From IMG/VR virus record IMGVR_UViG_3300038360_000413: a stretch of 64,000 nucleotides of DNA; one strand, written 5' to 3'. Position numbers and translations under genes: made by a program. Shown piece by piece: positions 14,426-51,800 of this stretch; positions within the stretch are counted from its first letter, which is position 1, and the number at the start of each line of letters is the position of its first letter. The notes below the pieces were generated by a model, which saw only the letters and a list, made by a program, of their open reading frames with translations, was not told where the DNA came from and did no database searches. The DNA is from a virus. Its lineage: Duplodnaviria; Heunggongvirae; Uroviricota; Caudoviricetes.

Positions 14426-14750
14426 TTCAAAAGAATTTAAACAAATTATTAAAGAAGTAGCAGAACAAAATAAATTAATCAATGCTATAGAGTCTATAAC
14501 ATGGAGTATAAAAACTATCGACAGACGTATGGACTCAGATGAATGTGCTATTTGTGGATTAGAAGCTTTAACAAGAGATAAAGATGGACCCGAGTTGAGC
14601 TCAATTAGTCTCGATTTAATAGATGTAGACACAAGAATTGAATTAGTCGCTAAACAGAAAAGACTATTAATAGAAGAGCGTAGTAAGGCAGAAAATGATT
14701 TACTAATCTTAAGAGAAAGATTTAAAAAAGATGCCAACAGTAATAAATAA
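14418..14750 (+). CDS. hypothetical protein
   Basis: 110-aa ORF. Confidence 0.35.
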   Translation: MHNSKEFKQIIKEVAEQNKLINAIESITWSIKTIDRRMDSDECAICGLEALTRDKDGPELSSISLDLIDVDTRIELVAKQKRLLIEERSKAENDLLILRERFKKDANSNK

Positions 14751-16484: not shown

Positions 16485-16814
16485 ATGAACAGAATCGAAG
16501 CAAAAAACTTGGTAATAGCAGAAGATAAAGAAACTACTTACGAATTGTATTTACCAGAGTTTGTAAAAAGTGAAGTAAGCATTAAGATGTCGCCTACCCA
16601 TTTAATCGTAAAAACAGCAGATATGACAGGATTACGTGACGTGATACAGCAAGGATTTGAAAACAAATTCCGCTTGTACTCATCAGACGCAACTCCTAAG
16701 AAAAATGATAGATTTCTTACGAAGAATATCAAAGCTGAAATGAACGGATTTTATCTTTTAATTACTATTCCAATCGCTGAAAAATATCACTCAACTGAAA
16801 TTGAAATAGCGTAG
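16485..16814 (+). CDS. hypothetical protein
   Basis: 109-aa ORF; ends in TAG. Confidence 0.35.
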   Translation: MNRIEAKNLVIAEDKETTYELYLPEFVKSEVSIKMSPTHLIVKTADMTGLRDVIQQGFENKFRLYSSDATPKKNDRFLTKNIKAEMNGFYLLITIPIAEKYHSTEIEIA

Positions 16815-17535: not shown

Positions 17536-17632
17536 AGTTAGGTCGTCCAATAGACTAGGATATGTGAAAACGGGTGGTGCAAACCATTGGCGATTAGTAG
17601 CAAATGTAGGTTCAAGTCCTACCCTAACTGCC
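17536..17632 (+). ncRNA. tRNA-like element, 97 nt with encoded CCA, internal fold unresolved
   Basis: Perfect 7-bp acceptor AGTTAGG/CCTAACT, T-arm GTAGG-TTCAAGT-CCTAC, G discriminator and CCA; D-stem GTCC/GGAT; no canonical anticodon arm found. Confidence 0.35.
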
Positions 17633-17990
17633 ATAACGTTTGCTCCTCTGACGTCAACTGTGTGATTATAGCGCACGGGAAGGGGAGCGACCAATTAGAG
17701 GGGGAGTTCTCCGGAGGTCTGCCTTCCAAAGCAGATTGCGCAGGTTCAAGATCCTGTACTCCTCCGCCAATTAACGCAGGTTCGTTTAAATCTAGGACCC
17801 CTCCATTGAGGAGGGAAATGTGGTGTAGTAACCCACACCTGCGGCCAAATTATAAGTAGGAAGTTGGATTAGCGGTACCCATCTTTTAAAGAGTGGGGAG
17901 AGAACTAAAGTTCGAGGATCAGAGTTTATAAACTGAGTGACAGGTGAAAGAAACTGCATCCCTTTGGTGTAATAACACACTACTTATATT
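17633..17990 (+). ncRNA. GC-rich structured non-coding region (unidentified RNA)
   Basis: Local GC far above genome average; only short overlapping ORFs on both strands; a second tRNA-like element (GGGGGAG...CTCCTCC-G-CCA, 17699-17768) and several GC hairpins. Confidence 0.3.
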
Positions 17991-18922: not shown

Positions 18923-19033
18923 ACTTACGGGGGTTGGGACTGCAATGGGGTGGTCATTTCTTTTGCACGGAAAAAAACAGACGGAATCGTTCTCCGTAGC
19001 CTCCACTAACACACTAATAATAAAGGACTTGAC

Positions 19034-19402: not shown

Positions 19403-20059
19403 ATGAAAACAACAAGAAAACGTATTAATAAGCAAATTATTTTGCCCTTTTATATTGACCTTAACACTACGTTTGAAGGTCTTACTAGTGAAATTAAAAC
19501 TAACTTAGATAGAATTGAGAAAGAAGTAGCAGATCAAGGCTACGAAACAGCTAGTATTTGTTTAAAAACTGACTATGACGGTGGTTATGACGTAAATATA
19601 CACGGTATACGCTGGGAAACTGATGAAGAATTAGAAAAGCGTACCAAAACAAATGAAAAGAAAAGCATAGCGGCAAAAAAAGCTGCCAAGGTTAAAGCTA
19701 AAAAGAAAGAAGAAGCTGAACTTGAACTTTATAAAAAGCTACATAAAAAATTTGCAGGCGATCCAAATAACCCAAAAATAATAGTAGGGATAGCTCCCGA
19801 CAAAAATACTGCGAAGTACATGATACAAAAACAATACCCAACCATAACAAATTCATGGACACATCTTTTTAAACATATAACGGATGCTCGCCAATTTCGC
19901 GCAATAACGCACGCTTGGGAACTTCGCGGGTTTAGGGTTGACACATTAATATCTGAGGAAAGTGACAACGCACAAGTAAATGGGGACATAGACCTAATTT
20001 TAAACGAAATGATGGCTAAGGGCGGTACTCACATGATAATTCCAAAAGGAGATATATAA
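19403..20059 (+). CDS. hypothetical lysine-rich protein
   Basis: Start moved to first ATG after the tRNA. Confidence 0.4.
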   Translation: MKTTRKRINKQIILPFYIDLNTTFEGLTSEIKTNLDRIEKEVADQGYETASICLKTDYDGGYDVNIHGIRWETDEELEKRTKTNEKKSIAAKKAAKVKAKKKEEAELELYKKLHKKFAGDPNNPKIIVGIAPDKNTAKYMIQKQYPTITNSWTHLFKHITDARQFRAITHAWELRGFRVDTLISEESDNAQVNGDIDLILNEMMAKGGTHMIIPKGDI

Positions 20060-20259
20060 TGGCAGATTACTGCTGGCAATGCACTATAGATATGTTTGGT
20101 GTAAAAGGCTACAGAAACGATTTAACAAACCTATCTACAAAGGATGACACTGAAAACAAAAAATACGCCCTCACAATTTGTGAAGGATGCGGACCAATTC
20201 AAGTAGACCACACAGGCACTTGTATATCAAAAGATTGCTTGAAAAAGCATAATAAATAA
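20059..20259 (+). CDS. small Cys-rich protein
   Basis: 66-aa ORF with CxxC pairs. Confidence 0.35.
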   Translation: MADYCWQCTIDMFGVKGYRNDLTNLSTKDDTENKKYALTICEGCGPIQVDHTGTCISKDCLKKHNK

Positions 20260-20269
20260 AAGGAAAATA

Positions 20270-20434
20270 ATGGAAAACAATATTTTAACAGTTGCTCGAC
20301 TATGTTTTAATGCAATAGTCGGCACATGTGTATTGTTGTACGGATTAGAAATACAAGCCACATTATTAATTATAGTAGGCGCAAGTTCTCTAGCAGGACA
20401 CTTACTTGGATTTGTACAACAATTTGAAAAATAA
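20270..20434 (+). CDS. small hydrophobic protein (54 aa), not in ORF track
   Basis: ATG after AAAGGAAAATA; two hydrophobic helices; TAA stop at 20432. Confidence 0.3.
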   Translation: MENNILTVARLCFNAIVGTCVLLYGLEIQATLLIIVGASSLAGHLLGFVQQFEK

Positions 20435-20437
20435 ATT

Positions 20438-20456
20438 CCGGGCGGAATTCCGCCCA
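20438..20456 (+). terminator. GC hairpin (CCGGGCGGAATTCCGCCC), possible terminator
   Basis: Perfect palindrome immediately after the small ORF. Confidence 0.35.
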
Positions 20457-20460
20457 TTCT

Positions 20461-20533
20461 AGTGTGATGACCGGGGGCTAGGCATCTGGGTTTTGGAAAC
20501 CTGGATAGATGGGTTCGACGCCCATTCACGCTA
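20461..20533 (+). tRNA. tRNA-Pro (anticodon TGG), D-arm imperfect
   Basis: Acceptor AGTGTGA/TCACGCT, anticodon stem TGGGT/ACCTG, loop TTTGGAA, T-arm ATGGG-TTCGACG-CCCAT. Confidence 0.45.
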
Positions 20534-20557
20534 CAAATAAAATCAGAAAGGCATAAC

Positions 20558-20872
20558 ATGAGAAAAACAATAGATCTATACAGATTTAGAAAAGACGGTT
20601 CGCGAGTATTTAGTGGACGAGATCTCGGTGCATTTGCACGCAAAGCTTGTTACCTTCCAGCTATCGAATTTTTCTTCAAAGAAATAGTAATTGAACTACC
20701 TACAGATACAATAGCAATTAATCCTTCATTCTTTATAGCAATGTTTGGCCCTTCCGTAAAAAGGCTTGGCGAAGCTAAGTTTAAAAAGAAATATAACTTT
20801 GTTTGCTATAAAAGCATTGAACAGGATATTGAGGAAGGTATCAAAGACTGTTTAATGAGAAATAAAATATAA
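20558..20872 (+). CDS. hypothetical protein
   Basis: 104-aa ORF. Confidence 0.4.
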   Translation: MRKTIDLYRFRKDGSRVFSGRDLGAFARKACYLPAIEFFFKEIVIELPTDTIAINPSFFIAMFGPSVKRLGEAKFKKKYNFVCYKSIEQDIEEGIKDCLMRNKI

Positions 20873-21660
20873 TGAAACCTAGAACATTAGTCATGGGCGA
20901 TTTACATGGAGCTCTCAAAGCATTTAAACAATGCATGGAGCGCTGTGAATTCGACTATGAAAACGATACTCTTATATTTATAGGAGACGCGGCCGATGGC
21001 TGGTCCGATGTAGCAGAGGGCATAAATGAACTTCTAAAAATTAAAAACTTAGTATTCATTATGGGTAATCACGACGCATGGCTGCTCGGTTGGCTACAAT
21101 ATGGACAAGCTCCAGAGCTATGGCTAGAACAAGGCGGAGATGAAACAATAGCCAGCTATGTAATGGCTCCAGTCAAGTGGAGAGACAAACATAGATACTT
21201 TCTTGAGAATAAAACTAAACTATACCACATAGACGAACTTAATAATGTTTATGTGCACGGCGGTTTTCATCATAAATACCCCATATCCAAAGAATCAACA
21301 TATAATTTAATGTGGGATAGAACTCTTCTCAATGTTGCTCGTATATACGAAAAACAAGGACATAAGTTTGAAAACTACAGAATTATTTTTGTTGGACACA
21401 CAGCAACTACAGGAATAACAGGCGGCGACGAACCAACATTCTTTTCAAACCTGGTTATGACTGATACAGGCGCTGGATGGTTCGGAAAATTAACCGTTAT
21501 GGATGTTGAAACTTTCGAGTTTTGGCAATCAGACAAGGTCGAAGAACTCTATCCTGAAGAACATGTTGTACGAGTTGCAAAACGCAAAAAAAGAATGAAA
21601 GAAGAAGAGATGAAAGAAAATCTAAGATTCTTTTATGAAAATGAAATAAAGAAAAAGTAG
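20872..21660 (+). CDS. calcineurin-like metallophosphatase (Ser/Thr phosphatase or ApaH-like)
   Basis: GDLHG, GDAADGW, GNHD motifs in canonical order. Confidence 0.7.
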   Translation: MKPRTLVMGDLHGALKAFKQCMERCEFDYENDTLIFIGDAADGWSDVAEGINELLKIKNLVFIMGNHDAWLLGWLQYGQAPELWLEQGGDETIASYVMAPVKWRDKHRYFLENKTKLYHIDELNNVYVHGGFHHKYPISKESTYNLMWDRTLLNVARIYEKQGHKFENYRIIFVGHTATTGITGGDEPTFFSNLVMTDTGAGWFGKLTVMDVETFEFWQSDKVEELYPEEHVVRVAKRKKRMKEEEMKENLRFFYENEIKKK

Positions 21661-21661
21661 T

Positions 21662-21745
21662 GCTGATATTTCCTGAGAGGTCAAAAGGTTCTGATTTGTA
21701 ATCAGATGACGAAAGTCTTCGCAGGTTCGAATCCTGCTATCAGCC
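21662..21745 (+). tRNA. type-II-like tRNA (long variable arm) with anticodon read as TGT
   Basis: Acceptor GCTGATA/TATCAGC, 3-bp D-stem with large loop, anticodon stem TCTGA/TCAGA, loop TTTGTAA, 14-nt variable hairpin GAC-GAAA-GTC, T-arm GCAGG-TTCGAAT-CCTGC. Confidence 0.5.
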
Positions 21746-21766
21746 CAACAAATAAAAGGAACAAAA

Positions 21767-24711: not shown

Positions 24712-24803
24712 ACTCCTGTAGTTATAATTGGTAAAACGGCTGATTTATAATCAGTATAGCGTCAGATGAACGTGAGTTCCAGGTTCGAGTCCTGGTGGGA
24801 GTA
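24712..24803 (+). tRNA. type-II-like tRNA (23-nt variable arm) with anticodon read as TAT
   Basis: Acceptor ACTCCTG/TGGGAGT, anticodon stem GCTGA/TCAGT, loop TTTATAA, variable hairpin CGT-CAGATGA-ACG, T-arm CCAGG-TTCGAGT-CCTGG. Confidence 0.45.
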
Positions 24804-24824
24804 CAAACAAAGAAAGGAAACAAA

Positions 24825-27310: not shown

Positions 27311-27508
27311 GTGAAAAACAAAATGTACGAAGAGTTTGCATGGACTACTATTAATAGGCTATACAAAATACTCTATAAAAGAAAAGAATTCAGCCGCAGA
27401 AATATTAATTGTGATAGATGCCCATACCATGGCGGTTGGGAAAATGGCTCATTTATTCGTGATAGAAATTGGAAACGATTTAGAAAAACCAAACACCAGT
27501 ATAAATAA
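27311..27508 (+). CDS. small basic protein
   Basis: 65-aa ORF. Confidence 0.3.
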   Translation: MKNKMYEEFAWTTINRLYKILYKRKEFSRRNINCDRCPYHGGWENGSFIRDRNWKRFRKTKHQYK

Positions 27509-27509
27509 C

Positions 27510-27595
27510 GGCCGGGTGGTGAAACTGGTAGACGCACCGGACTTAAAATCCGACGGGCCTTTGTGCCCATACGAGTTCGAAGCTCGTCTCGGCCA
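27510..27595 (+). tRNA. tRNA-Leu (anticodon TAA), type II
   Basis: Acceptor GGCCGGG/CTCGGCC, loop CTTAAAA, long variable arm, T-arm ACGAG-TTCGAAG-CTCGT. Confidence 0.65.
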
Positions 27596-27874
27596 CTTTG
27601 AAAAGACCTATCCCATGACTTAGGTGTCGGAGGATACGCGATCTGTACTACAGACATGCTAAGCCCCACTAAATATCTGGTATCTCCAGAGGCCGCGAAC
27701 CTGTAGGCACCACTGAGCAACTAGCTGAAATGTATTAAGCCGTATAGTGTAGTGAGAGTGGGAATAATTGGCCCATAACATATAGTTGATAACGCGGGAT
27801 ACAACCTGTTATCTGTAAAATTCGCTATATGAATGATCAAGCGTAAAAAAGCCTTCATAGGTCTTTTCAACTAA

Positions 27875-30338: not shown

Positions 30339-30424
30339 GTGTAGGTGGTAGATTTGGGAATACACTCGGCTGTGACCCGAGTTGGAGACAGCTCCTCATG
30401 CGGGTTCGAACCCCGTCCTACACC
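30339..30424 (+). tRNA. type-II tRNA (long variable arm) with anticodon GTG
   Basis: Perfect acceptor GTGTAGG/CCTACAC, 3-bp D-stem GTA/TAC, perfect anticodon stem CTCGG/CCGAG, loop CTGTGAC, variable hairpin GGAG-ACAG-CTCC, T-arm GCGGG-TTCGAAC-CCCGT. Confidence 0.55.
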
Positions 30425-30461
30425 CAAATAAGAAAACATTCCAACAAAATAAGGAAAGGAA

Positions 30462-31466: not shown

Positions 31467-31550
31467 GGGGCGATGCTAGAGCGGTCGAATAGGGTGGTTT
31501 GCAAAACCATCGAGTATATCTCCACATCAGTTCGAATCTGATTCGTCCCT
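31467..31550 (+). tRNA. tRNA with Cys anticodon (GCA) but a 15-nt variable region
   Basis: Acceptor GGGGCGA/TCGTCCC, anticodon stem GTGGT/ACCAT, loop TTGCAAA, T-arm ATCAG-TTCGAAT-CTGAT. Confidence 0.45.
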
Positions 31551-31569
31551 CAAATAACCAAGAAAGATT

Positions 31570-32171: not shown

Positions 32172-32483
32172 ATGAACCAAGAAATCTTAAAAATAAAAGA
32201 AGAACAAAAAGCGTTAGGCAAACACATCCGTGAACTTAAAAAGAAAAGAAAAGGAAACGGATCAGATTGGAGACTTCAATGTGAGATAGAAGAAAAATCA
32301 CGTGAGTTCAGACACAAACATATCGCTAGATGTGAATTAAGGGGTCGCACAAGAGAACAAATTGAAGCAAAAGTTAGAGACGGCAACGAGCCTAATGAGT
32401 CTCAAATATCAGTATACAAATCCAAATATTTAAAAAGAATCGAATCGGCTATGGAGCCTGTCTTAGAAAAGGTGGCTTCATAA
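32172..32483 (+). CDS. hypothetical basic protein
   Basis: 103-aa ORF. Confidence 0.4.
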   Translation: MNQEILKIKEEQKALGKHIRELKKKRKGNGSDWRLQCEIEEKSREFRHKHIARCELRGRTREQIEAKVRDGNEPNESQISVYKSKYLKRIESAMEPVLEKVAS

Positions 32484-32779
32484 TGGAGCCGTATTTATAT
32501 ATTATTTGTCGAAGAGATCTGGACCCGGTGTATGCTGCGGTCCAGGGAGGACATGCTTTAGCAGACTTTTTGTTACGTAAAAAACAAAATGACTGGAACA
32601 ATAATTATCTCATATACTTAACAGTTCGAGATGAAAAAGCATTACAGAAATTACGAGACAAACTAATATACAAAGATATAGAAATCGGAAGTTTTAAAGA
32701 ACCAGATTTAAAAGACGAATTAACAGCGCTTGCTATAGAGAATAATCAATCTCTGTTTAAACGCCTGCAAGTACTATAA
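32483..32779 (+). CDS. PTH2-like (aminoacyl/peptidyl-tRNA hydrolase family) candidate
   Basis: AAVQGGHALA segment resembles the PTH2 active-site region. Confidence 0.35.
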   Translation: MEPYLYIICRRDLDPVYAAVQGGHALADFLLRKKQNDWNNNYLIYLTVRDEKALQKLRDKLIYKDIEIGSFKEPDLKDELTALAIENNQSLFKRLQVL

Positions 32780-32785
32780 GCAAAT

Positions 32786-32859
32786 GCGCGAGTAGTTCTA
32801 GCGGCTAGAACAGGAGATTCTAAATCTCTGTGTCGCGGGTTCAAGTCCCGCCTCGCGCA
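32786..32859 (+). tRNA. suppressor tRNA, anticodon CTA (reads UAG amber)
   Basis: Canonical 75-nt cloverleaf: acceptor GCGCGAG/CTCGCGC, D-stem GTTC/GAAC, anticodon stem GGAGA/TCTCT, loop TTCTAAA, T-arm GCGGG-TTCAAGT-CCCGC. Confidence 0.7.
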
Positions 32860-32870
32860 CATAAAATTAA

Positions 32871-32943
32871 CGGCTCCTACGTAGACCAGGTGGATATGCG
32901 GGACTGAAAATCCTGAGAGTGCGGTTCGATACCGCAAGGGGCC
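32871..32943 (+). tRNA. tRNA-Phe (anticodon GAA)
   Basis: Acceptor GGCTCCT/AGGGGCC, anticodon stem CGGGA/TCCTG, loop CTGAAAA, T-arm TGCGG-TTCGATA-CCGCA. Confidence 0.55.
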
Positions 32944-32964
32944 ACAACAATAGGAACAAAAAAA

Positions 32965-33513
32965 ATGAGAACACGTACACTTGTTATTAATAAAAGTTAT
33001 ATGGCTTTACACGTAGTAGATTGGCAAAGAGCAATGACTTTAGTATGTAAAGGTATAGCGGAAAGAGTTGAAACCCATACGGAGGGACACTTACGAACGA
33101 CAAGTGGAGGCGTTAGTAAAGAATGGGGAATGCCAGCAGTCATACGACTTGTAGATTTCAACTTTCCACCAAAAGGCGGACAACAATACCAACGTCTTAA
33201 TAAGCATAATTTATGGATGAGAGACGGAGGTAAATGTGTATATTGCGATATAGACTTAAGCACACACAATATGACTGCAGATCATGTTATTCCTAAAAGT
33301 AAAGGTGGCAAAAAATCTTGGGATAATCTAGTATGTTCTTGTAAGAAGTGTAATGGCAAAAAAGGAGATAAAACTCCAGTACAAGCTAATATGCCTTTGA
33401 AAAAGAAACCATATGCACCAACTCTGAATGCATCTTTATCTATTAAGATAAGGAAAGAAATCAGTCTTTATAAAATAGTCCCTCAAACTTGGAAACCCTA
33501 CATTTTTTGGTAA
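32965..33513 (+). CDS. HNH endonuclease
   Basis: CVYCD...ADHVIPKSKGG...CSCKKCNGKKGDK HNH-N motif. Confidence 0.65.
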   Translation: MRTRTLVINKSYMALHVVDWQRAMTLVCKGIAERVETHTEGHLRTTSGGVSKEWGMPAVIRLVDFNFPPKGGQQYQRLNKHNLWMRDGGKCVYCDIDLSTHNMTADHVIPKSKGGKKSWDNLVCSCKKCNGKKGDKTPVQANMPLKKKPYAPTLNASLSIKIRKEISLYKIVPQTWKPYIFW

Positions 33514-33656: not shown

Positions 33657-34340
33657 GTGAAAGTACAGTTGGAATCAAAAGAAAGACTGAAAACCTGTAC
33701 AAAATGTAAGACCAAAAAACCTACAACCGAATTTCATAAAAAAACATCCGCAAAAAGCGGATTGTGTTCACATTGCAAATCTTGTGTAAAAAAATATAAT
33801 GCTGAACATAAAACTGAGATAGCCGAACGCGGTCGAAAATATCGTGTGAAACATAAAGTTGAAATATGTAAAAGAAAACAAAAATATCATGCTGAGCATA
33901 AAACTGAAATAGATAAAAAAAATAAAACATATTATATAAATCACAAAGTTGAAATAGCTGAGCGTAAGCGCAAATATAGAATTAAACATGCAGTAGAAAT
34001 AATCGAAAATCGACGAAAGTATTGTATTAAACATAGTGATAAAATTATAGAACAGACTCGAAAATGGCGAAAGAATAATCGAGATAAACATGCAGCAATA
34101 CAAGCAAAAAGAAGAGCAAATAAAATAGCTCAGACTCCAGTTAATGCCGACATGAAGAAGATCGGTGAGTTTTATACTGAAGCACGTCGGCTAACCGAAG
34201 AAATCGGAATTCCCCACGAAGTTGATCATATTATACCGATAAGTAAAGGAGGACTTCATCACGAAGATAACTTACAGATCCTAACGAAGTCGGAAAATTG
34301 TCGGAAAAGCGATAAACTTCCCGAAGAATTAGAAAAATAA
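33657..34340 (+). CDS. HNH endonuclease with N-terminal K/R-rich repeats
   Basis: C-terminal HEVDHIIPISKGG...NLQ HNH motif; repeated KYRVKHKVEI units. Confidence 0.55.
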   Translation: MKVQLESKERLKTCTKCKTKKPTTEFHKKTSAKSGLCSHCKSCVKKYNAEHKTEIAERGRKYRVKHKVEICKRKQKYHAEHKTEIDKKNKTYYINHKVEIAERKRKYRIKHAVEIIENRRKYCIKHSDKIIEQTRKWRKNNRDKHAAIQAKRRANKIAQTPVNADMKKIGEFYTEARRLTEEIGIPHEVDHIIPISKGGLHHEDNLQILTKSENCRKSDKLPEELEK

Positions 34341-34365: not shown

Positions 34366-36486
34366 ATGAATATTAATTCGATCTTTTTAAGACGAAAGAG
34401 CAAAATATGTCTTCCTGAAATAACAGAAGGCAATAAAGCAATCCCGGTTACTTACTTAGCAGCTATGTTAAGAAATTTCGCAGGGCTTGGATTTATATTT
34501 ACAACAAATGTAATAGAACGTCTAAAATATCTTCCAGTATCTGTACTTGAAGATTTCTATCTAAAGACTATGATTACTCTTAAACAACTAAAAGGTGTTA
34601 AAACCTACGAACCGATGTATCCTAATTTCCCTAAACAGGTAATGGAGGCATCCTCAGCCGAGCTCTTTATGAATGCTATAGTGCAGTATTGGTTTGGCGC
34701 ATATCCAGCATATGAAAAAGAAGAAAGACTTCCTCTTTTTGAAGAAACTGAAATAACTGTAATAGATTTAGGAACTCCAAAAGAATTTGGAAAAATCTTT
34801 CATGACATGATGTCTTCAAATGCCTCTATATCAGAATTAGATAAAAAAGAACTAGACTGGTTCTTTGCAAATCTTACTGATTTGGCATGTCGAATGGTTC
34901 CAGCTGCAATGCCACAAAAAGAAATTTTGGCATATACAGTAGGACTTATTTCTAAATATGTTACTGGGAACATTGAACTTATTATGCCTCTCTTTACAAC
35001 TGCAACAGATGTATTGAGATTGGCTGTGGCTTTGTCTGACGGCGACGTTAGTTTAGCTAAGAAAACTAAGTTCAGAAACTTTACTCGACCAGAACGTAGA
35101 TTGTTCTTAGCAGTTATAAATTCTCTAAATTACTACAATCTTAGAGAAAATATGCAGCAATACAGAGAACCGTGGTTACGTATCGCTCATCAACTACATC
35201 CAGGTGAAGTTCAATTCAAATATCCAACTGCCTTTAAAGCATTTCATGCCCTTCGAAACGAAAACAAAGTGAGAACTTTTGATGGTAAGGTGGAAATAGC
35301 ATTTAAGAACAAAAACTGCGTCGATCTGTGCACGCTTTTGGTCAAAAGACCGGGTGTTTTTGCACGTACATTGGACAGAATTCTTAGAAGTTTTCCAAAC
35401 GAACACGCCCAGATTTTGAGTGAATTTGCAACAGTTGCAGCTGAGGCATCTACTCCTGTACTAATACAAACATTAGCACATATTCGTAAACGTTCGAATA
35501 CTCCTCAATTGCGTTCTTATGTTCCTAAGGGAAACATTGGTAAAGTACAAATTCATGACAATACTTTTACAGACTTACCTTCTGACACTGTTAAAAGTGC
35601 AGAAGCTGTGTGTGAAAAATCTCTTGAAACTAAGTTTAGTGACTTAGATGAAATGCAAACAGTATTCTTAGATGATAACATGGTAGACTATGTAATACCT
35701 TTCGGACAACGTTCAGCTTCTGAAGCTCTACGCATAATTCCAAGAGGATCTCATATGCCATTAGCTGATAAAAGCACCCTACGTCTTTTCACTTGGTGGA
35801 AAAATAACACTGGAAGAGTGGACGTGGATTTATCAGTGCTACTATTTCGTGAGGATTGGAGCACATATGGACGTTTATCATACACAAATCTAAGAGATGA
35901 TAACATACGATCTTATCATAGCGGAGATATCACAAGTCCAGCACCTGCAGGTGCTTGCGAGTTTGTTGATATCAACAAGCAGTCAGCACTACGCAAAGGA
36001 GCCCGATTTGTATTAATGAATCTTCTTTCCTACACACGTCAGCCATTCAAAGATTTCGAGTGTATAGCTGGTTGGATGGACAGAGACGGTATACAATCTG
36101 GTGAAATTTTCGAACCAACTACGGTTACACAGAGATATGATGTAAACAGTGATGTTAGAGTACATATCCCAGTGTTATTTGACCTAAAAGAGAACAAAGC
36201 AATTTGGATCGATTTGGCAATCACTGATAAAATTAACCGAGGCGGAAATAACGTTGAATCTAATGCTGTGACTTTAAACAGGTTAGCGCAAGTAATAACC
36301 GAAAGAGGTTACTACAATTTGCATGAACTGTTCAAATTACACACAAGAGCTCGTAAGGGTAAGTTTGTAGAAACACCCGAAGAAGCGGACGTAGTTTTCA
36401 CTGCTTCCGACTATAAATCTGAAAATAAGCAAACGGTGGTAACGCCGTATGACACTGAAGTAATCGCTGCAGAGTTTCTTCAGTAA
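34366..36486 (+). CDS. large hypothetical protein (706 aa) immediately upstream of the tRNA-like array
   Basis: Long uninterrupted ORF followed by hairpin terminator at 36521-36540. Confidence 0.55.
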   Translation: MNINSIFLRRKSKICLPEITEGNKAIPVTYLAAMLRNFAGLGFIFTTNVIERLKYLPVSVLEDFYLKTMITLKQLKGVKTYEPMYPNFPKQVMEASSAELFMNAIVQYWFGAYPAYEKEERLPLFEETEITVIDLGTPKEFGKIFHDMMSSNASISELDKKELDWFFANLTDLACRMVPAAMPQKEILAYTVGLISKYVTGNIELIMPLFTTATDVLRLAVALSDGDVSLAKKTKFRNFTRPERRLFLAVINSLNYYNLRENMQQYREPWLRIAHQLHPGEVQFKYPTAFKAFHALRNENKVRTFDGKVEIAFKNKNCVDLCTLLVKRPGVFARTLDRILRSFPNEHAQILSEFATVAAEASTPVLIQTLAHIRKRSNTPQLRSYVPKGNIGKVQIHDNTFTDLPSDTVKSAEAVCEKSLETKFSDLDEMQTVFLDDNMVDYVIPFGQRSASEALRIIPRGSHMPLADKSTLRLFTWWKNNTGRVDVDLSVLLFREDWSTYGRLSYTNLRDDNIRSYHSGDITSPAPAGACEFVDINKQSALRKGARFVLMNLLSYTRQPFKDFECIAGWMDRDGIQSGEIFEPTTVTQRYDVNSDVRVHIPVLFDLKENKAIWIDLAITDKINRGGNNVESNAVTLNRLAQVITERGYYNLHELFKLHTRARKGKFVETPEEADVVFTASDYKSENKQTVVTPYDTEVIAAEFLQ

Positions 36487-36520
36487 CTAGACTCATCCAC
36501 CATGTGTGGAAAGAGATGAG

Positions 36521-36545
36521 CCTCCCTTTAACCGGGGAGGCTGTA
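36521..36545 (+). terminator. hairpin terminator (CCTCCC-TTTAACCG-GGGAGG)
   Basis: Perfect 6-bp GC stem after the 706-aa ORF. Confidence 0.45.
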
Positions 36546-36547
36546 AT

Positions 36548-36618
36548 ACGGAGGTAGCTCAACAGAAGAGCGATGGGTCGCTCCCTGCGTGCTGGTTCAA
36601 ATCCAGCCCTCCGTGCCA
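36548..36618 (+). ncRNA. tRNA-like gene with truncated anticodon arm, CCA encoded
   Basis: Acceptor ACGGAGG/CCTCCGT, D-stem GCTC/GAGC, T-arm GCTGG-TTCAAAT-CCAGC, G-CCA; only 18 nt where anticodon arm plus variable should be. Confidence 0.35.
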
Positions 36619-36758
36619 AATTCGCTGGCTATTTTATTGCTTCCTTCTAAACGCCCAGTGGGCACTTGAATAAGGATCAAACAAAAAACAGTAATAAAGA
36701 TTTCCAGCAAACAATTCGTTTGGCTATATGATAGTTTCCTTCCATAATTTGCCTTAAA

Positions 36759-36830
36759 AGCAAGCGGTTGCGGGTTCGAGTCCCGTCACCATCTTCGGGT
36801 GGTGTAGCTCAATTGGTAGAGCTCTTAATC
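36759..36830 (+). ncRNA. permuted tRNA-like module U1
   Basis: T-arm GCGGG-TTCGAGT-CCCGT, CACCATC-TTCG-GGTGGTG closed acceptor, D-arm GCTC-AATTGGTA-GAGC. Confidence 0.45.
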
Positions 36831-37138
36831 CAACTGTCGTGATTTCCAAACACCCTTTTACTAGATCGTTTAATAAGTACGCTTCGTACTTAGAGATACT
36901 TGCAAAAGATCTTCAACGTAAAGAACTTCTCTTCGATGTCCTGACGGGACATCAGAGAAATTCACAAAGACCTCGTACAAACCCCGGCAACCAGGACTTT
37001 TCCTTCCAGATTCATGAACTCTCTACGAGTGTCCATCAAATCGTTACAGGAAACTACCTGGTGCCAGCTTTGTACATAGCCTTTTAGTAGTAAACAAATT
37101 TCGTTTGGCTATTTATAAACTTCCTTCTATAAACGCAA

Positions 37139-37209
37139 TCCGGGGGTCACAGGTTCGAATCCTGTCAGGCTGCTTCGGCGGTCTGTAGCTCAGTTGGCAG
37201 AGCACCGGA
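37139..37209 (+). ncRNA. permuted tRNA-like module U2 (best preserved)
   Basis: TCCGG (anticodon 3' strand), GGGTC variable, ACAGG-TTCGAAT-CCTGT T-arm, CAGGCTGC-TTCG-GCGGTCTG closed acceptor, D-arm GCTC-AGTTGGCA-GAGC, CCGGA (anticodon 5' strand). Unit closed by GTTTGG (37103) pairing with CCAAAC (37238). Confidence 0.55.
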
Positions 37210-37289
37210 CTTTAAAGTAACCCAGTTTATAAGATTTCCAAACACCCTTTTTATATTTGTTGGCCATATAATATGCTTCCTTCTATTAT

Positions 37290-37362
37290 AATCAATGATG
37301 ATGTAGGTTCGATTCCTACCTTCCCCACACCGAGGGGAAGTGGCGCAATTGGTGACGCACAT
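37290..37362 (+). ncRNA. permuted tRNA-like module U3
   Basis: GTAGG-TTCGATT-CCTAC, CTTCCCC-ACACCGA-GGGGAAG closed acceptor, D-arm GCG-CAATTGGTGA-CGC. Confidence 0.45.
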
Positions 37363-37430
37363 GACATGTAGCAATTATGATTTCCAACTATTTTTTTTGT
37401 TTGGCTATGAAAAAGCTTCCTTCTATTATT

Positions 37431-37480
37431 ACAGGTTCAAATCCTGTATTGCTCATTGAGCGATGATTGGTTAAACTAGC
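37431..37480 (+). ncRNA. permuted tRNA-like module U4 (truncated 5' half)
   Basis: ACAGG-TTCAAAT-CCTGT, ATTGCTC-ATT-GAGCGAT. Confidence 0.35.
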
Positions 37481-37820
37481 TTTTTCGATTTCCAAACATT
37501 CTTTTACTAGACCGTTTAATAGGTACGCTACGTACTTAAAGGTAAGCAAAATTACCTTAAACAAAGAACTCTCCCAATATCCACGAGCGGGACCTAAGAG
37601 GTCCAAGATGGATATTGACAGAATTCACAAGAAATACAGAAACCTACTGGCCGGTCAATCCAGGCCTAGGCGACGAGTCAGCCCTGAGCGAACAGTGCCG
37701 ACGTCTTGCCCGGGCCACGGACCACCGGCAACTATGTTTCCGAATCTCTTTTAGTAGTAACACGACAAATTTTAACTTGTTTGGCTATAAAGAAACTTCC
37801 TTCTAAAATGGTTAATAAAT

Positions 37821-37880
37821 CGGTAGCATTGCTATCGGTTTTGTAGGTTCAAACCCTACTCCGCGCTTCGGCGCAGTAAA
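37821..37880 (+). ncRNA. permuted tRNA-like module U5 (anticodon-like hairpin, T-arm, closed acceptor)
   Basis: CGGTAGC-ATT-GCTATCGG hairpin, GTAGG-TTCAAAC-CCTAC, CCGCGC-TTCG-GCGCAG. Confidence 0.35.
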
Positions 37881-38014
37881 ATCAGTTTCTTTGATTTCCA
37901 AACACCCCTTTCGAAAGGCTATTTAATGACTTCCTTCTACTTCTGTTGCCGCCTAACGGCGGTATACTTTCTATGTATAATGAAACCAGTTATTAAGATT
38001 TCCTTTCACCTTTT

Positions 38015-38095
38015 GCTCCCATAGTCACAACGATCTTCTAAGTCGTTATAGTGTAATTGGATCTGTAAATGTAGGTTCAAGTCCTACTGGGAGTG
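38015..38095 (+). ncRNA. atypical tRNA-like gene: anticodon arm (loop CTTCTAA, TCT) 8 nt after the acceptor; D-loop-like TAGTGTAATTGGA after it
   Basis: Acceptor GCTCCCA/TGGGAGT and T-arm GTAGG-TTCAAGT-CCTAC; same non-canonical arm order as the gene at 33523. Confidence 0.35.
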
Positions 38096-38231
38096 CAACG
38101 TCTGGCTATTTTATTGCTTCCTTCTATTTTAGCTCTTAAATGAGCACTTGAATGCTAACCAAAAAAATAGTAATAAAGATTTCTAGACGACTTTTTAAAT
38201 AAAAAAAACAAACAACTACACGGAGGAAACA

Positions 38232-38420
38232 ATGAAGTGTATTAAAAACGTACAAACTGATGAACTAAATCGCGTTACGGATCGAGAGGCAGAGCTATTA
38301 ATAGACTCTAAGGAGTATGTATACGTCAATAAACAACAATGGAAAGACGCCAAAAGACCGACAAAATCGGTAACTGGTACTATAAATACGCTAATTCAGC
38401 AAAGGGGCGTTGTAGCTTAA
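38232..38420 (+). CDS. hypothetical protein
   Basis: 62-aa ORF with RBS GGAGGAAACA. Confidence 0.35.
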   Translation: MKCIKNVQTDELNRVTDREAELLIDSKEYVYVNKQQWKDAKRPTKSVTGTINTLIQQRGVVA

Positions 38421-38446
38421 AAAATATCACCTAGAAAGGGTATAAA

Positions 38447-38853: not shown

Positions 38854-38928
38854 ACGAGTGTCGATTTAACTGGCTAAGTCTGCGGATTCCAAACCCGTTA
38901 ATTCAAGGTTCGAATCCTTGCACTCGTG
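38854..38928 (+). tRNA. tRNA-Trp (anticodon CCA)
   Basis: Acceptor ACGAGTG/CACTCGT, D-stem GATT/AGTC, loop TTCCAAA, T-arm CAAGG-TTCGAAT-CCTTG. Confidence 0.55.
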
Positions 38929-38945
38929 CTAACAAAGGAAGAATT

Positions 38946-40273: not shown

Positions 40274-40825
40274 ATGCAGAACAAAAGAATAAGAGGAACT
40301 TCTCCAGCAGTAATGCTGACAAATCCAAAATTTCCACACAACGTCGGTGCCACAGTGCGCGCCGCATCATGTTGGGGAGTTGAACAAGTTTATTGGACAG
40401 GCCGCAGAGTTCCTCACCCAGAAAATTGGCCTAAAGAACATCGACTTCCAAGAGAAGAGCGTATGAAAGGTTATAGAGATGTAACAATGCTTAAAGCAGA
40501 AACTTTAAAAGATACATTGAAAAACTTTGATAAAGATGTAGTACCTGTTGCAATTGAATTGCGACCTAACTCAGAAATCTTATTTGATTTCATACATCCG
40601 GAAAACGCCATATACATATTTGGACCTGAAGACGGAAGTCTTGATTGGAAAGTACTCCAACATTGCCACAGATTTGTGGTATTACCAACTGCCCATTGTA
40701 CCAATCTTGCAGCAGCAGTAAATGTAGTACTTGCACACAGAAAAGAACAAATGTACAAACGAGGATTAATTCCCAACATCTACGACTTCTTAGAAGAAGA
40801 TAGAGGCTTTATCGCAAACTGTTAG
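40274..40825 (+). CDS. SpoU/TrmH-family RNA 2'-O-methyltransferase
   Basis: NVGATVRAASCWGV (motif 1-like), IFGPEDGSL, TNLAAAVNVVLA (SPOUT motif 3-like); ends in TAG. Confidence 0.55.
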   Translation: MQNKRIRGTSPAVMLTNPKFPHNVGATVRAASCWGVEQVYWTGRRVPHPENWPKEHRLPREERMKGYRDVTMLKAETLKDTLKNFDKDVVPVAIELRPNSEILFDFIHPENAIYIFGPEDGSLDWKVLQHCHRFVVLPTAHCTNLAAAVNVVLAHRKEQMYKRGLIPNIYDFLEEDRGFIANC

Positions 40826-43369: not shown

Positions 43370-43750
43370 GGGGGCGCCCGGTATCGATTATTATACGACG
43401 CGAGAATGGCTCAAGCAGAGTTATTGGCTTAACCAATTAAAACAAACAACTGGCAAAACGCAGTTCGCATTAGCGGCGTAAAGTAACATTTACGGTTATC
43501 GCTCACGTTCTTCTTCTTGACTCCGATAGTTCTGAAGAGCGTCATTTATCGGATCTGTCCAACTGTTTGGGGACGAATAAATAAAGGCACAGCGTTCCAA
43601 AGGTAAAGGGAAGTACGATAACTAATAATAGAGCTCCCGAGATCATTTGTTCTTTTGATTACCTCGTAAACATTGCAAAAGAAATAAGCTTGTAAACAAC
43701 CACCTTGATACTATAATAAGACGGGAGTTCGACTCTCCCCGCCTCCACCA
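43370..43750 (+). ncRNA. ssrA: tmRNA (SsrA)
   Basis: 5' GGGGGCG pairs with CGCCTCC 375 nt downstream, followed by A-CCA. T-arm GGGAG-TTCGACT-CTCCC. Internal tag reading frame GGC AAA ACG CAG TTC GCA TTA GCG GCG TAA (..KTQFALAA*) at 43452-43481. Confidence 0.8.
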
Positions 43751-44924: not shown

Positions 44925-45536
44925 ATGAATAACCCTATGAACCCTGAAACACTAGAGCTTATGAGAATTCAATTCGAGATACTGAGCAGACAATTAGAAG
45001 TAGGAATTGATGTAGATAGAAGAATTATTACAGTAGACGGTCTGATTGATATTACGACCCCAGGCTTGCTGAAAAGCAAAATAGACTTAATTACTGGTCT
45101 AACTAACAGTTTTGACCCAATTACTTGGGAAATAACAAGTTACGGCGGATCAGTAGAAGGTATGTTTGGTTGTCTAGATGTTATGAATGAATCAAAAGCA
45201 ATAATAAATGCACATGGTATTGGAATTGCCGCGTCAGCTGCCGCTTGGATATTGATAGCCGCTCCAGGAGAAAGAAGTATGAGTAAAAATGCTTCCTTAA
45301 TGCTACATGAAATGAAAGCCGATCTCGGAGGCGGTGTAGCAGAACTAACAGCGAGCGCAAGTTATCTTGAAGAACGCTTTAGTCAAGCACTCACTGTCTT
45401 AGCAAAAAATTCCAATAAATCGAAAGCATACTGGGCAGGTTTAGTACAAAACACTTTGTACATGTCTGCATCCACTTGTTTAGAATATGGATTAATAGAT
45501 AAGGTAAGAACACATGCAAAACGGAAAAGAAGATAA
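44925..45536 (+). CDS. ClpP-family (S14) serine peptidase-like protein
   Basis: GIGIAASAAAWIL around the putative active Ser, MLHEM helix; about 200 aa. Confidence 0.55.
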   Translation: MNNPMNPETLELMRIQFEILSRQLEVGIDVDRRIITVDGLIDITTPGLLKSKIDLITGLTNSFDPITWEITSYGGSVEGMFGCLDVMNESKAIINAHGIGIAASAAAWILIAAPGERSMSKNASLMLHEMKADLGGGVAELTASASYLEERFSQALTVLAKNSNKSKAYWAGLVQNTLYMSASTCLEYGLIDKVRTHAKRKRR

Positions 45537-45774
45537 TTTTACTGGTATTTCCGATTACAAAGTACCGGATAAATACAAACCATTTGGACCATTCATGAAA
45601 GAATATTGGGACCATGCCATTCCGTTTTTTAGAAAAAATCCCCAAATGGATACTAGAGAACTGAACGAAACTTTTGAACAAATATTAGAAGAGTCTCACA
45701 CAGAGCAAATGAAAGCAGACTTTCGTAACCAAATGATACAAGAAAAAATAATATACGGAGAAAACGATGACTAG
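45514..45774 (+). CDS. hypothetical protein
   Basis: 86-aa ORF ending in TAG. Confidence 0.4.
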   Translation: MQNGKEDNFTGISDYKVPDKYKPFGPFMKEYWDHAIPFFRKNPQMDTRELNETFEQILEESHTEQMKADFRNQMIQEKIIYGENDD

Positions 45775-46410: not shown

Positions 46411-46617
46411 ATGAATAAAAAGAAGCAAAAAGCACTCAATAATCTCAGAACACAAATGGGGTTTCCAAATTCCGACATTCTTGGCGGAAAAAAGAGATTA
46501 GAGAATCAAGTGCGCACAATGCTTGAACGCTCTTTTGAAAAAGAAAGCGAACCTTCTAAAGTTATTGATCAATTTATGGAAACCTTCAAAAAAGAAGTAA
46601 TTGACTTTTGGGCTTAA
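46411..46617 (+). CDS. hypothetical protein
   Basis: 68-aa ORF. Confidence 0.35.
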   Translation: MNKKKQKALNNLRTQMGFPNSDILGGKKRLENQVRTMLERSFEKESEPSKVIDQFMETFKKEVIDFWA

Positions 46618-47321
46618 CCCTCATAGGCTTTTAATATTTTTGCGATTAAACCATGTCGTACAATATCTTCTCTAGTAAATTCCAAAGTACCTATTTCATT
46701 TAAAGCACTAAGACGTTCTATAGCGTTGCGTAATCCGTTATCGTATCCTATATCTGATTGTCTAATATCCCCGGCTACAATCATTTTTGAATCCTGCCCT
46801 ATACGGGTTAGAAACGCTTTCATACTAGACTGGGAGGAGTTTTGTGCTTCGTCATATACAATGACAGCGTTATCCCAAGTAAGTCCTCTAAAAAAAGTTA
46901 ATGGAACTTGTTTAATTACACCTGAAGCTCTTAATGTTTCAGCACGATCGTTTCCAATTAACTTTTCTAAATTTTGAAAAAACGGAAGCATAAAAGGTCC
47001 AATTTTATCATCCAAGTTTCCTTTTAAAAATCCAACTCTTTCATCATCTACCGGAACAAGCGGACGACATAATACAATTTGCTCAATGTTGTTGTCTTTA
47101 CTTGATAACGCTTGTAAGGCATATCACATAGTAATAAACGTTTTGCCAGTTCCTGCGGGACCTGTGCAAAATGTTATGTCATGGGTATCGATTGTGTCAA
47201 ATAATAACTTTTGGTTATCAGTTTTGAACTCTAATGATAGTCCATGGTCAGAACCATTTTTGGGATAAAATAATCTTCTCACCTGTTCGAGGGCTTGTCG
47301 TTTGTTTTTACATTCTTGCAT
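46614..47321 (-). CDS. phoH: PhoH-like ATPase interrupted by a single in-frame TGA (47124-47126)
   Basis: N-terminal fragment ends GPAGTGKTFITM-TGA; the same frame continues YALQALSS...LDDKIGPFM into the C-terminal ORF (VIVYDEAQN, IVAGDIRQSD). Confidence 0.6.
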
Positions 47322-48864: not shown

Positions 48865-51800
48865 TTAATAAAATTCACCCTTTTCATATTTAGTATTTCT
48901 TCCAAAGTTATCTCCATAGATATAAGCAGGTATCGGATCCTTACCTTTAAGGTTAGCATATAACCCTTTAGCTGCTCCAACAGTTAGCCCAGCTTTAACT
49001 CTGTTCGTACTGATTCTAGTTAACCAATCGTCAACATCTGTATTAAGAGTTTCTATAGATTTGAAGTAAGGAACATATTCAACTCTTTCTAATCCCTCTG
49101 CTTTACGTTTTTTATTAACAAATTTTATATTACTTACAGTCGTCTTATCACCACGTAGAAATCCGCTTTTTTCAGGAGCTTTAGTTACTTCCGCATTATC
49201 TGAAATTCCACGAATTACTGTTTCAAAAGTCTTTTTAAAGAAGTTGCCTCCATAAACCTTATGTGCTTCATCTACTAAATAACGTTGAGCAACTAAATGT
49301 CCTTTTAACTCTCCAAGTTCTTGTGGTTTGATAATGCCGTCACTTAGTACATCACCTTTGTCAATTTGATCATTTACTTTAATTAAAGGCAATCTACCAG
49401 AAGGAATTGTAAAGTCCTTATCATTCGCAGTACCATATCCCTCTATTCGTACATTATATCCGCCAGTCAGGTTCTTATCTATTTTCTTCACCTTTCCTCG
49501 TACAGTAGAAAGAGTAGCTTTTCCTGGTAATTTAACAGGAACTTTTAATAACTGCTCAAGACGAGGAAATCCAGCTTGAATTCCGCCTCCAGCAAGTGCT
49601 GATCCTCCGCTATGGAAGGATTGCATAACTAACTGTGTAGATCTTTCTGTAACGGATTGACTTTCTAAAACTCCAACATTGGTTCCCACAGAAGCAGGTT
49701 GTCCGTTTGGCATTAATCCATAACAGGATTGACATATACCTTCGACAGCCTCACAAGTCAAAGGACTGCGAACATATAATTGTACGCGATTTCTTTTTTT
49801 CGCTTTTCCAACAAGCGTAGAATCTACGATATCGTTTCGTTTACCAATTCCTGTTATTGTTTTTGCCAAATATCTATCTAGTACATCTGGAGAGTCTGTT
49901 TGTATATAAATTCCCTTTTTAGTATCACAATCTTCAACAGTAATTAGTAAACGACGAGTAACATTAAGAAGTGCCTTGTTGAGTGCTCCAGAATCCTGAG
50001 TATTTACAGCTCTATCTACAGTACCTTTACGCACAGCGTATAGCGTTGAATAATAAGAAGCTGTATCCAATCCTTCTCCATATGATTTTAATACAGGATA
50101 TGGAATTGGTTTGCCATGGACATCTGTCAGCACACCTGGCATAGAAATAATTTGTCGAACCGAATCCGGTTTACTAAACGATCCAGAACGTAACATAGTG
50201 AAAATATTGTTTTTTGATTTACTAAACTTCTTATTTTGAGCATCCTGAATTTTCAATGTCATTGCGTTTAGTTTCTTAATTCTATTTTCACCCTTAAATC
50301 TATTTATAGCAGGAAGTTCTTTTTCAATAATAGCATTTCTGTAAGAACGATCTACATCAAAATCTTTTATGGAAATAGTATTTGTATTTCTGTAAGCATA
50401 CATCGCGCCTAGATCCTTCCAAGATTCAATCACATCAGAGAAGTATTTATTATAACTCTTTGCAAGAGTTGTAAGTAATTTGCTAATAGTTTTTTTGTCC
50501 ATAGCACGATCATACTCTTTTAACTTGTCTGGAAGTTCGTGATTAATAAGATATTGACCGATAGTCATTTCTTTTCCATTTAAGAAAAACTGTTCAGTCC
50601 AGGAAATTTTAGCCTTCTTAGCAGCTTGAATGGTTTTATATTTTGCATCAGTTTTTTTAGTAATTAAACTTAACTGGTATAATCCATAAATATATTCTTG
50701 ACCCAATCCAGGCACTACAGAGTTATCTCCATGTTTAAATAAGATTTTACTAGGATACATATGACGAGCTTCAGCAATAGCTTCAGGGCCAACGGGTGTC
50801 ATAATCGACATTGTATCGCCATCATGATCTAAATTTAATCCTGCGTGAATTAACGAATTAACAGCAATAGCTTTTCCTTTTATTAAAACAGGTTTGAATG
50901 CTTGTATACTATGTTTATGTAAAGACGGAGCTCTATTTAATATAACAGGGCGTTTTCTAACAGCTTCTTTTAAAGCATTCCAAGCTAACGGTGATTCCTC
51001 TTCGTAGTTCTTTAAAGCTGCAACTGCTTTTAATCCAGATTGCTTTAATTCCTGTATAACAAAAGGTCTAAACATTTTATAAGCTAGCTTTCTTGGAATT
51101 CCAACTTCATCCAACCCTAAACTAGGTTCTACGGTTATAGTACTTCTAGCACTTACATCTTGTCGCTTAGACCATGTCTTGCCCTGTATTAGCCCAACTT
51201 TTGGCTTACCAATTTCTTTTAATATACCTTTATACTGCTCACCACCATAAGTAGTAGGCTCAATGAACCCCTGCATAGCTTTAACCGTGTTATATAGCGA
51301 GTATTCTGCTAAATCAACATCTTCCTTCGTTAAGTCCTTTTTAGCTCTTAACAAGCTTGTATTGATAATTCCAATATCTCTATAATGTTTATTAATATCA
51401 CTTACAGCTAAATCACCAGAAGGTAATGGCACTGTAGGTCGATATACTGGAGGAAGTACTGGAACATATTTCATTGTATAAGCTTCTTCTGGTCTTAGTT
51501 TAAGATCCTTTAAAGCTCTTAAATATTTTGCCAAAGTGTTTAACTTGTTTACATTGGTAGGAGGTGCGCTTACTAATTCATCAGTTACTGACAATAATTT
51601 AGAGTCTACTTTAATTGCACTTAATGCTGCAATAATTGCTTCCATTCCAGTTAGTTCATTTAGCTTTTCTTTACCTTCAAGAATATCTTCAAAACGTTGT
51701 TGTGTTAAACCAAGTATTTTCATGATCGCATCAGCATACATAGGATTAGAAATTCTAGAAGCCAGCTCAATGTGTGACCAATGTGTTCCTCTTACACCGC

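Follow-up and report, generated by a model that had tools for sequence, protein, structure and literature searches.

The CUA tRNA and its immediate neighbors

The window, by which we mean the whole stretch of 64,000 nucleotides that was analyzed (one strand of IMG/VR virus record IMGVR_UViG_3300038360_000413, Caudoviricetes), has a G+C content of 36% and carries on its plus strand, at 32786-32860, a 75-nt tRNA gene to which ARAGORN assigns the anticodon cta. Rfam RF00005 aligns with its full model to positions 32786-32859 and scores 60.8 bits (gathering score 29), the Rfam alignment has no non-canonical pair in the stems, and the cloverleaf is also the minimum free energy fold of the sequence alone (-34.4 kcal/mol, z = -5.0), with none of 200 shuffles doing as well. 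An earlier, sequence-only reading of this DNA had folded the same cloverleaf by hand, with all stems intact and an anticodon loop TTCTAAA (CTA), and on both counts the hand fold agrees with these programs. The 7-nt anticodon loop, UUCUAAA, has U33, A36-A37-A38 and a purine at position 37; U33 and A36-A37-A38 are also found in the loops of the classical E. coli amber suppressors. In an alternative register (UCU), the sequence read directly yields pairs at three positions only. The acceptor stem, GCGCGAG/CTCGCGC with the discriminator A73, is separated from the D stem by two bases, and the gene departs from the usual in having U14 where A is nearly universal and in lacking an encoded CCA. Since all stems pair perfectly and the T loop has the canonical form, decay is not indicated. 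Nine contigs that were assembled separately (ENA, JGI and Logan) contain the identical 75 nt, which excludes an assembly error; because these contigs are at least 99.88% identical overall, they are uninformative on the conservation of the tRNA, and for the same reason the contigs of this phage offer no polymorphisms by which tolerance of TAG could be gauged. The CUA tRNA is thus confirmed as real, well formed and of the amber-suppressor type.

The label "Pyl" that ARAGORN attaches to the gene derives only from its cta anticodon, which is likewise the sole feature in favor of a pyrrolysine tRNA. A tRNA-Pyl has a compact D loop without G18-G19, a 6-bp anticodon stem, a 3-nt variable loop and PylRS as its partner, whereas the CUA tRNA has G18-G19 within a D loop of 9 nt, an anticodon stem of 5 bp, a variable loop of 5 nt and the T loop TTCAAGT, and the families of Pyl synthetase and pyl biosynthesis are absent from the Pfam lists for the region. 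This ordinary tRNA anatomy rules out a tRNA-Pyl identity, to which we give practically no credence.

On its 5' side the gene follows a plus-strand ORF of 98 aa (32483-32779) whose TAA stop lies 6 nt away, and we infer that the two are co-transcribed; scans for promoters and terminators near the tRNA, including the gap to this ORF, gave nothing above shuffled controls. A tRNA-Phe(GAA) found by ARAGORN at 32872-32945 (+) lies 11 nt to the 3' side and is probably part of the same transcript as the CUA tRNA; the two are identical at 44 of 75 positions, which rules out a recent duplication. Directly 3' of the pair is an HNH homing endonuclease gene (32965-33513, +; Pfam HNH, HNH_4 and HNH_5), followed by a second endonuclease gene of the endonuclease VII or HNH-like type (33657-34340, +; PHROG phrog_1035, E 2.2e-24). 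Next to these, 34366-36486 encodes a 706-aa TerD-family-like protein that is 41-44% identical to proteins of Paenibacillus and Brevibacillus and 55% identical to one metagenomic match; belonging to a bacterial TerD-like family, it was of no help as a handle on related phages.

The CUA tRNA is one of 26 tRNAs that ARAGORN and Rfam place among the genes of a plus-strand array spanning 17099-41293. The array is followed by a tmRNA at 43370-43750 (+; ARAGORN and Rfam), with the tag GKTQFALAA ending at TAA, and by a ClpP protease gene (44925-45536) 1.2 kb from it. The only tRNA within the window that decodes Trp codons is a tRNA-Trp(CCA) with G73 at 38854-38929 (+), and ARAGORN, at relaxed settings too, found no tRNA(UCA) in the window. 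There is no confident tRNA-Arg or tRNA-Ala in the array, in a region where the commonest Arg codon is AGA (476 of 988); additional Arg and Ala tRNAs proposed by ARAGORN at a relaxed threshold (17536-17633, 17845-17930 and 18929-19006) are unsupported by Rfam.

Several unusual tRNA-like sequences were seen in and around the array. One, at 17700-17769 (+), combines an acceptor stem of 8 bp with a reduced D arm and an anticodon loop of 8 nt, CUUCCAAA; it has G73, and its CCA is encoded. ARAGORN reports it only at a relaxed threshold and its Rfam score of 25.3 bits is under the cut-off. Long extra arms, which in bacteria are normally confined to Leu, Ser and Tyr tRNAs, occur here in tRNAs of 85-93 nt for Thr-UGU (21662-21746), Ile-UAU (24712-24804), His-GUG (30339-30425) and Cys-GCA (31467-31551). 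The gene-free 2 kb at 36487-38446 has sub-threshold Y RNA-like (YrlA) matches at 37126-37236 (43 bits) and 36762-36829, as well as several tRNA-like modules, such as 36548-36615 with a shortened anticodon arm and 38015-38095 with an Arg-UCU-type anticodon arm and no normal D arm; when introns are allowed, ARAGORN proposes a candidate tRNA-Arg at 36797-37867 with a 978-nt intron.

The phage and its relatives

The genome to which the window belongs is at least 210 kb long. For the analysis of recoding, the window was joined to flanks from other contigs of the phage to give 83.4 kb, so that over half of the genome lies outside the sequence considered. A megablast search with the region among 50,697 phage records returned no close relatives, IMG/VR scans with the exact CUA tRNA and with the RNA polymerase protein gave no matches, and a scan of the same database with the end of the known sequence recovered the same contig only. 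Among the genes of the window are those for an RNA polymerase (beta/beta') of bacterial type, for a pair of tRNA-repair proteins and for enzymes of NAD salvage, together with genes for DnaJ, ClpP and a reverse transcriptase. The portal protein, whose gene lies shortly beyond the window, shares 27-30% identity with the portals of Salmonella phage Arash and Vibrio phage D181 and 45-60% with those of a large clade of uncultivated phages, which includes contigs of up to ~200 kb. The phage is not crAss-like, and its relatives come from environmental metagenomes.

A few other features of the region and of the clade may be recorded here. The reverse transcriptase gene (RVT_1, 59564-60484, +) adjoins a gene of the GP88 family and could be part of a diversity-generating retroelement or of another retroelement, and 56710-59366 encodes a bacterial-type MoxR AAA ATPase with a vWA partner. 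Six portals of relatives (P0261, P0267, P0285, P0286, P0298 and P0299) are ~1,000 aa long, compared with ~630 aa, and have LAGLIDADG or intein domains; inteins seem to be common in the portal clade.

UGA as a tryptophan codon and the tRNA that would read it

The sequence-only reading had pointed to in-frame TGAs elsewhere in the window, and these are real. The PhoH-like gene at 46614-47321 (-) is interrupted by a TGA at 47124-47126; with this codon read as Trp, residues 31-234 align with positions 3-205 of the 205 in the Pfam PhoH profile (E 2.3e-61), whereas the downstream ORF alone covers profile positions 73-205 only. A single reading frame of 2,355 codons at 48865-55929 (-) encodes RNA polymerase beta, an intein and beta', and its sole interruption is a TGA at 53548-53550 in the first block of the intein (…GDKL/CVSADTEFLTYDG-TGA-KFLEEI … SWTGN/SGRYGNKYIV…, with slashes at the borders). 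The intein is inserted in the beta motif GDK[LM][AS]GRHGNKG, which is universal and is restored when the intein is removed. LAGLIDADG_3 is the only Pfam domain that passes in the intein, the splicing domain being unrecognised by Pfam; PDB matches were weak, and all seven were to inteins or intein-containing entries. Splicing of an intein requires that it be translated in frame with both of its flanks.

Two more examples are found beyond the right end of the window. The endolysin gene (19956-20500, -, in the contig L016) has one in-frame TGA at an invariant Trp, which is present in 19 of 19 homologues (LPWHxxRxW there, LPAHPTRT-TGA-SKRSL here). A conserved late gene of ~240 aa (~13616-14314, -, in the same contig, equivalent to 65047-65745 of the window) has three in-frame TGAs, one of which is aligned to Trp in six homologues; under the standard code this gene appears as an empty gap, yet its translation matches relatives with E = 6e-50. 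Standard-code gene calling reduces both of these genes to fragments or gaps. The TGAs inside the conserved late-gene alignments from 80 loci of relatives are likewise mostly aligned to Trp. On the strength of these alignments we take the recoded codon of this phage to be UGA, which is read as Trp in at least some genes.

A CUA anticodon is unable to read UGA, and the in-frame TGAs go with a separate tRNA. A tRNA(UCA) lies beside the endolysin gene, ~8 kb past the right end of the window and ~39 kb from the CUA tRNA, and is present in two independent assemblies (20536-20634, -, in L016; 3470-3568, +, in L261; equivalent to 71967-72065, -, of the window). ARAGORN at default settings missed it because of an unusual T loop (GGCGGTA), and the Rfam match is partial (30.5 bits). 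It has A1-U72, G73, an encoded CCA and the anticodon loop CUUCAAA, all of which are features of bacterial tRNA-Trp. Other tRNAs with the anticodon UCA account for 14 of the 20 tRNAs in the late-gene loci of relatives, where they are 93-100 nt long with an extra arm and also lie beside the endolysin gene, and compensatory changes are seen in 11 of the 17 pairs of the family. The terminal loop of the extra arm keeps TCCAA in nine of nine aligned homologues and is similar to a Trp anticodon loop as well as to a T loop. We take this Trp-like tRNA(UCA) beside the endolysin gene to be the decoder of UGA.

UAG as a terminator

Among the 85 genes called in the window, 71 end in TAA, 10 in TAG and four in TGA. 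One of the TAG-ended ORFs, at 27336-27623, overlaps a tRNA-Leu and is probably spurious, which leaves nine, the number given in the sequence-only reading. These are a SpoU-type RNA methylase gene (40274-40825, +), in which the domain is complete and TAA follows immediately after the TAG, and the genes at 8-364, 1016-2143, 11794-12624, 14731-16467, 16485-16814, 20872-21660, 45514-45774 and 56348-56701; a TAG-ended RNA ligase also has a complete domain. A codon-usage gene call over the first 80 kb gave 112 genes, with 88 (79%) ending in TAA, 13 (~12%) in TAG and 11 in TGA, and did not show the fragmentation that is typical of TAG recoding. Reading TAG as sense produced a smaller gain in ORF coverage than reading TGA as sense.

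In a further scan, the ORFs of relatives were translated against the 83 kb and stops inside conserved alignments were counted, with filtered queries and a support threshold used against artefacts from antisense ORFs. No TAG was found in frame at a conserved position on the sense strand anywhere in the 83 kb. In 80 late-gene loci of the portal clade, where events were counted in conserved alignments supported by at least eight loci, there were 53 in-frame TGAs, three TAAs and one TAG, this last being weak; 80 early-gene loci had no in-frame stops in conserved alignments. The endolysin gene, which has an in-frame TGA of its own, terminates at a TAG located exactly at the conserved C-terminus of its homologues. 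Within the 83 kb that could be read, UAG still functions as a normal stop. The suggestion that this phage has non-standard termination holds for TGA, and no recoding or readthrough tied to the CUA tRNA is visible; the link proposed between this tRNA and stop-codon recoding finds no in-frame TAG to rest on in the 83 kb, and a single TAG against 53 TGAs in the relatives.

UAG might nonetheless be a sense codon in genes beyond the 83 kb, where it would be decoded by the CUA tRNA as in the code 15 phages, giving a doubly recoded genome. Surveys tie Sup-CTA tRNAs strongly to TAG recoding, recoding is typically limited to blocks of late genes, and the 83 kb amount to less than half of the genome. 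Against this, the late block that could be analyzed (portal, endolysin and neighbors, ~12 kb) contains four in-frame TGAs, no in-frame TAG and TAG as a terminator, and the scarcity of in-frame TAG in the late loci of the portal clade and the ~12% of genes that end in TAG run the same way. We consider double recoding unlikely on balance.

Adjacent genes in the same frame

Two of the TAG-ended genes had been singled out in the sequence-only reading as being followed by the next gene in the same frame. The pairs, 8-364 with 365-628 and 11794-12624 with 12637-13401, are indeed in frame without an intervening stop, and it is conceivable that the CUA tRNA serves to make fusion proteins from them by programmed readthrough. 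Same-frame arrangement in two of nine cases is under the one-in-three expectation for adjacent genes on one strand, and is thus no excess over chance. Each downstream gene starts with ATG and has its own Shine-Dalgarno sequence (AGGAG before 365 and AAGGA before 12637), and no Pfam domain spans either junction. A hypothetical 535-aa fusion of the larger pair was searched against 1.8 billion representative proteins: each half has hundreds of homologues that are separate proteins, with ends coinciding with the TAG and the ATG, and a homologue fused in that order is absent from the best 150 matches. The single long match to the fusion proved to be a tandem copy of the first half. The pairs thus look like ordinary neighbors, with the homologues of the larger pair standing alone, and programmed readthrough is a very improbable explanation for the tRNA.

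Origin, identity and recurrence of the CUA tRNA

The CUA tRNA is identical to the other tRNAs of the phage at no more than 54 of 75 positions. Its acceptor stem together with A73 is found in cellular genomes mostly in tRNA-Arg (116 of 137 matches); among full-length sequences in metagenomes tRNA-Arg(CCU) comes closest, with 61 of 74 positions identical, and scans with the acceptor and D stems return Arg, Ile and Gly types. Yet A20 and C35, the determinants for ArgRS, are missing. Comparison of identity elements, which the sequence-only reading had proposed as a way to predict the inserted amino acid, points to neither Gln nor Trp: a weak 1-72 pair with G73 would be expected for Gln and G73 for Trp, and the CUA tRNA has neither combination. 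Among 74 collected tRNAs, the nearest are the TTA tRNA of Sinorhizobium phage phiM12 (59/75) and the CUA tRNA of the locus L029 (55/75), both of them stop-reading tRNAs, and they lead the others by a small margin.

CUA tRNAs are also found in large, distantly related phages that have an AAA ATPase in common, where they make up six of 47 tRNAs in 80 loci. In four of these loci (L019, L029, L050 and L051) the 20 kb around the AAA ATPase gene contain no tRNA other than the CUA tRNA. The cloverleaf is kept in all of the recurring tRNAs, and their loci also fit the standard code. When the seven CUA-carrying loci are compared with 74 others, the distance from a terminal TAG to the next in-frame stop has a median of six codons as against 12 (p ~0.02), and 39% of TAG-ended genes stop again within three codons as against 19.5%, in comparisons that involve a small sample and several tests; TAA- and TGA-ended genes have no such difference. 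Within the CUA-carrying loci, TAG and TAA do not differ significantly in next-stop distance (p = 0.17), and in the phage studied here a second stop follows within 13 codons in 10 of 12 TAG-ended genes (p ~0.1 within this phage alone). The shorter distances to a back-up stop are suggestive and would fit an active suppressor with buffered terminators.

These observations bear on whether the CUA tRNA is a working decoder at all. It could have arisen recently from a sense tRNA by a change of anticodon, or have come in as a passenger with the neighboring homing endonucleases, and be poorly charged, unused or engaged in some non-translational role. An acceptor stem and overall sequence of Arg type in a molecule without A20 and C35, the unusual U14, the two adjoining endonuclease genes and the lack of a target codon in the 83 kb would all be in keeping with such an origin. 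The perfect stems and canonical T loop speak against it, as do the recurrence of CUA tRNAs in several large phages that are divergent, in some cases with no other tRNA in 20 kb, and the back-up-stop trend, which suggests that suppression is felt. We hold this explanation to be rather doubtful.

A second suppressor in an opal-recoded phage

With UAG remaining a stop in the 83 kb and UGA having a tRNA of its own, the CUA tRNA is left as an orphan second suppressor. The explanation that we prefer is accordingly that the CUA tRNA is a second suppressor without a visible target in an opal-recoded phage, and as a whole it has, in our estimate, a probability of about one half. The tRNA itself, the lack of in-frame TAG in the 83 kb and the recoding of TGA with a dedicated tRNA are the established parts of this explanation. 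Expression is less direct: the CUA tRNA would most likely be transcribed along with the surrounding tRNA array, and its CCA end would be added by a CCA-adding enzyme. Charging would presumably be carried out by a host synthetase, and an active CUA tRNA would then compete with release factor 1 at UAG terminators. Genes of the phage would lose little in this competition because 79% of them end in TAA and most of the TAG-ended ones stop again within a few codons; the cost of suppression would fall mainly on host genes, or else the CUA tRNA may just be tolerated, any benefit to the phage being conjectural. What runs counter to the preferred explanation is that TAG is not rare, ending ~12% of genes, and that two of the TAG-ended genes would, under suppression, run into the next gene. 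The unusual U14, the weakness of the back-up-stop signal and the coverage of less than half of the genome by the 83 kb also count against it.

Suppressor tRNAs are well documented in recoded phages. The combination of UCA and CUA suppressors is already reported from other phages, to which the present phage adds a case from an unrelated lineage. Phage Lera encodes 26 tRNAs that include SUP-TCA and SUP-CTA, with TGA read as Trp in lysis and structural genes and no amber suppression; TAG there serves solely for termination, with a further stop close by, and the authors of that study discuss whether recoding is at an early stage or the host is affected (PMC12386605). The Zeta crAss-like phages Lera and ct1yV3 resemble the present phage in having ~26 tRNAs, both suppressor tRNAs, TGA as Trp and no sign of amber suppression, and in encoding a reverse transcriptase and genes of tRNA metabolism (PMC12386605). 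They differ from it in lineage, the present phage having a bacterial-type beta/beta' RNA polymerase, an Arash/D181-like portal (27-30%) and relatives from environmental metagenomes; moreover, in-frame TGA occurs here also in PhoH and RNA polymerase, and TAG, which is rare in Lera, terminates ~12% of genes here, where TAA does not always come directly after it. In the Mgcod survey, two of three code 4 phages with Sup-TCA also carry Sup-CTA (10.1101/2022.06.29.495998), and these phages of codes 4 and 11 resemble the present one, by reported count alone, in the joint presence of the two suppressors (10.1101/2022.06.29.495998).

Other suppressor tRNAs offer partial parallels. Phages of code 15, in which TAG is recoded to Gln and which include Lak and crAss-like phages, have in-frame TAG in late genes; they share with the present phage a phage-encoded Sup-CTA, low GC and a strong preference for TAA (10.1101/2021.08.26.457843; PMC11210395), whereas the 83 kb considered here have no in-frame TAG and use TAG as a terminator. 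The best match to the CUA tRNA in the phage collection is the "tRNA-TERM" of Sinorhizobium phage phiM12 (NC_027204), with 78% identity over 97% of the length; it too is a stop-reading tRNA from a large phage, but it has the ochre-type anticodon TTA and an encoded CCA and belongs to another phage and host. An identity of 78% does not establish common descent of the two tRNAs. The E. coli suppressors supD, supE, supF and Su7 have a YUCUAAA-like loop with A37-A38 on a normal tRNA body, as does the CUA tRNA; they are laboratory mutants of sense tRNAs with a known amino acid, whereas the CUA tRNA is a wild-type phage gene.

We have also considered, as a quite unlikely extension, that the UCA and CUA tRNAs, the phage tmRNA and the phage ClpP form one module for takeover of the host. 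If this were true, then with both tRNAs made TAA would be the sole dependable stop and the phage genes would be largely spared, while host genes ending in TGA or TAG would be read through, with products that stall or are extended, after which they would receive the tag of the phage tmRNA and undergo degradation. In that case the host, and not the decoding of phage genes, would be the target of the amber suppressor.

For annotation, it follows from the in-frame TGAs that translation tables 11 and 15 are both wrong for this phage, TGA being a sense codon in at least some genes. The standard code splits PhoH, RNA polymerase beta, the endolysin and another late gene, and the CUA tRNA, taken alone, would steer an annotator to the wrong alternative code. 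More broadly, this is an independent case, outside the crAss-like phages, of an opal-recoded phage that keeps an amber suppressor without a visible target, and such recurrence suggests that the second suppressor may be kept for a reason. It may be aimed at the host, or it may be held as a step toward a second recoding, and the question of the second suppressor can now be tested in another group of phages.
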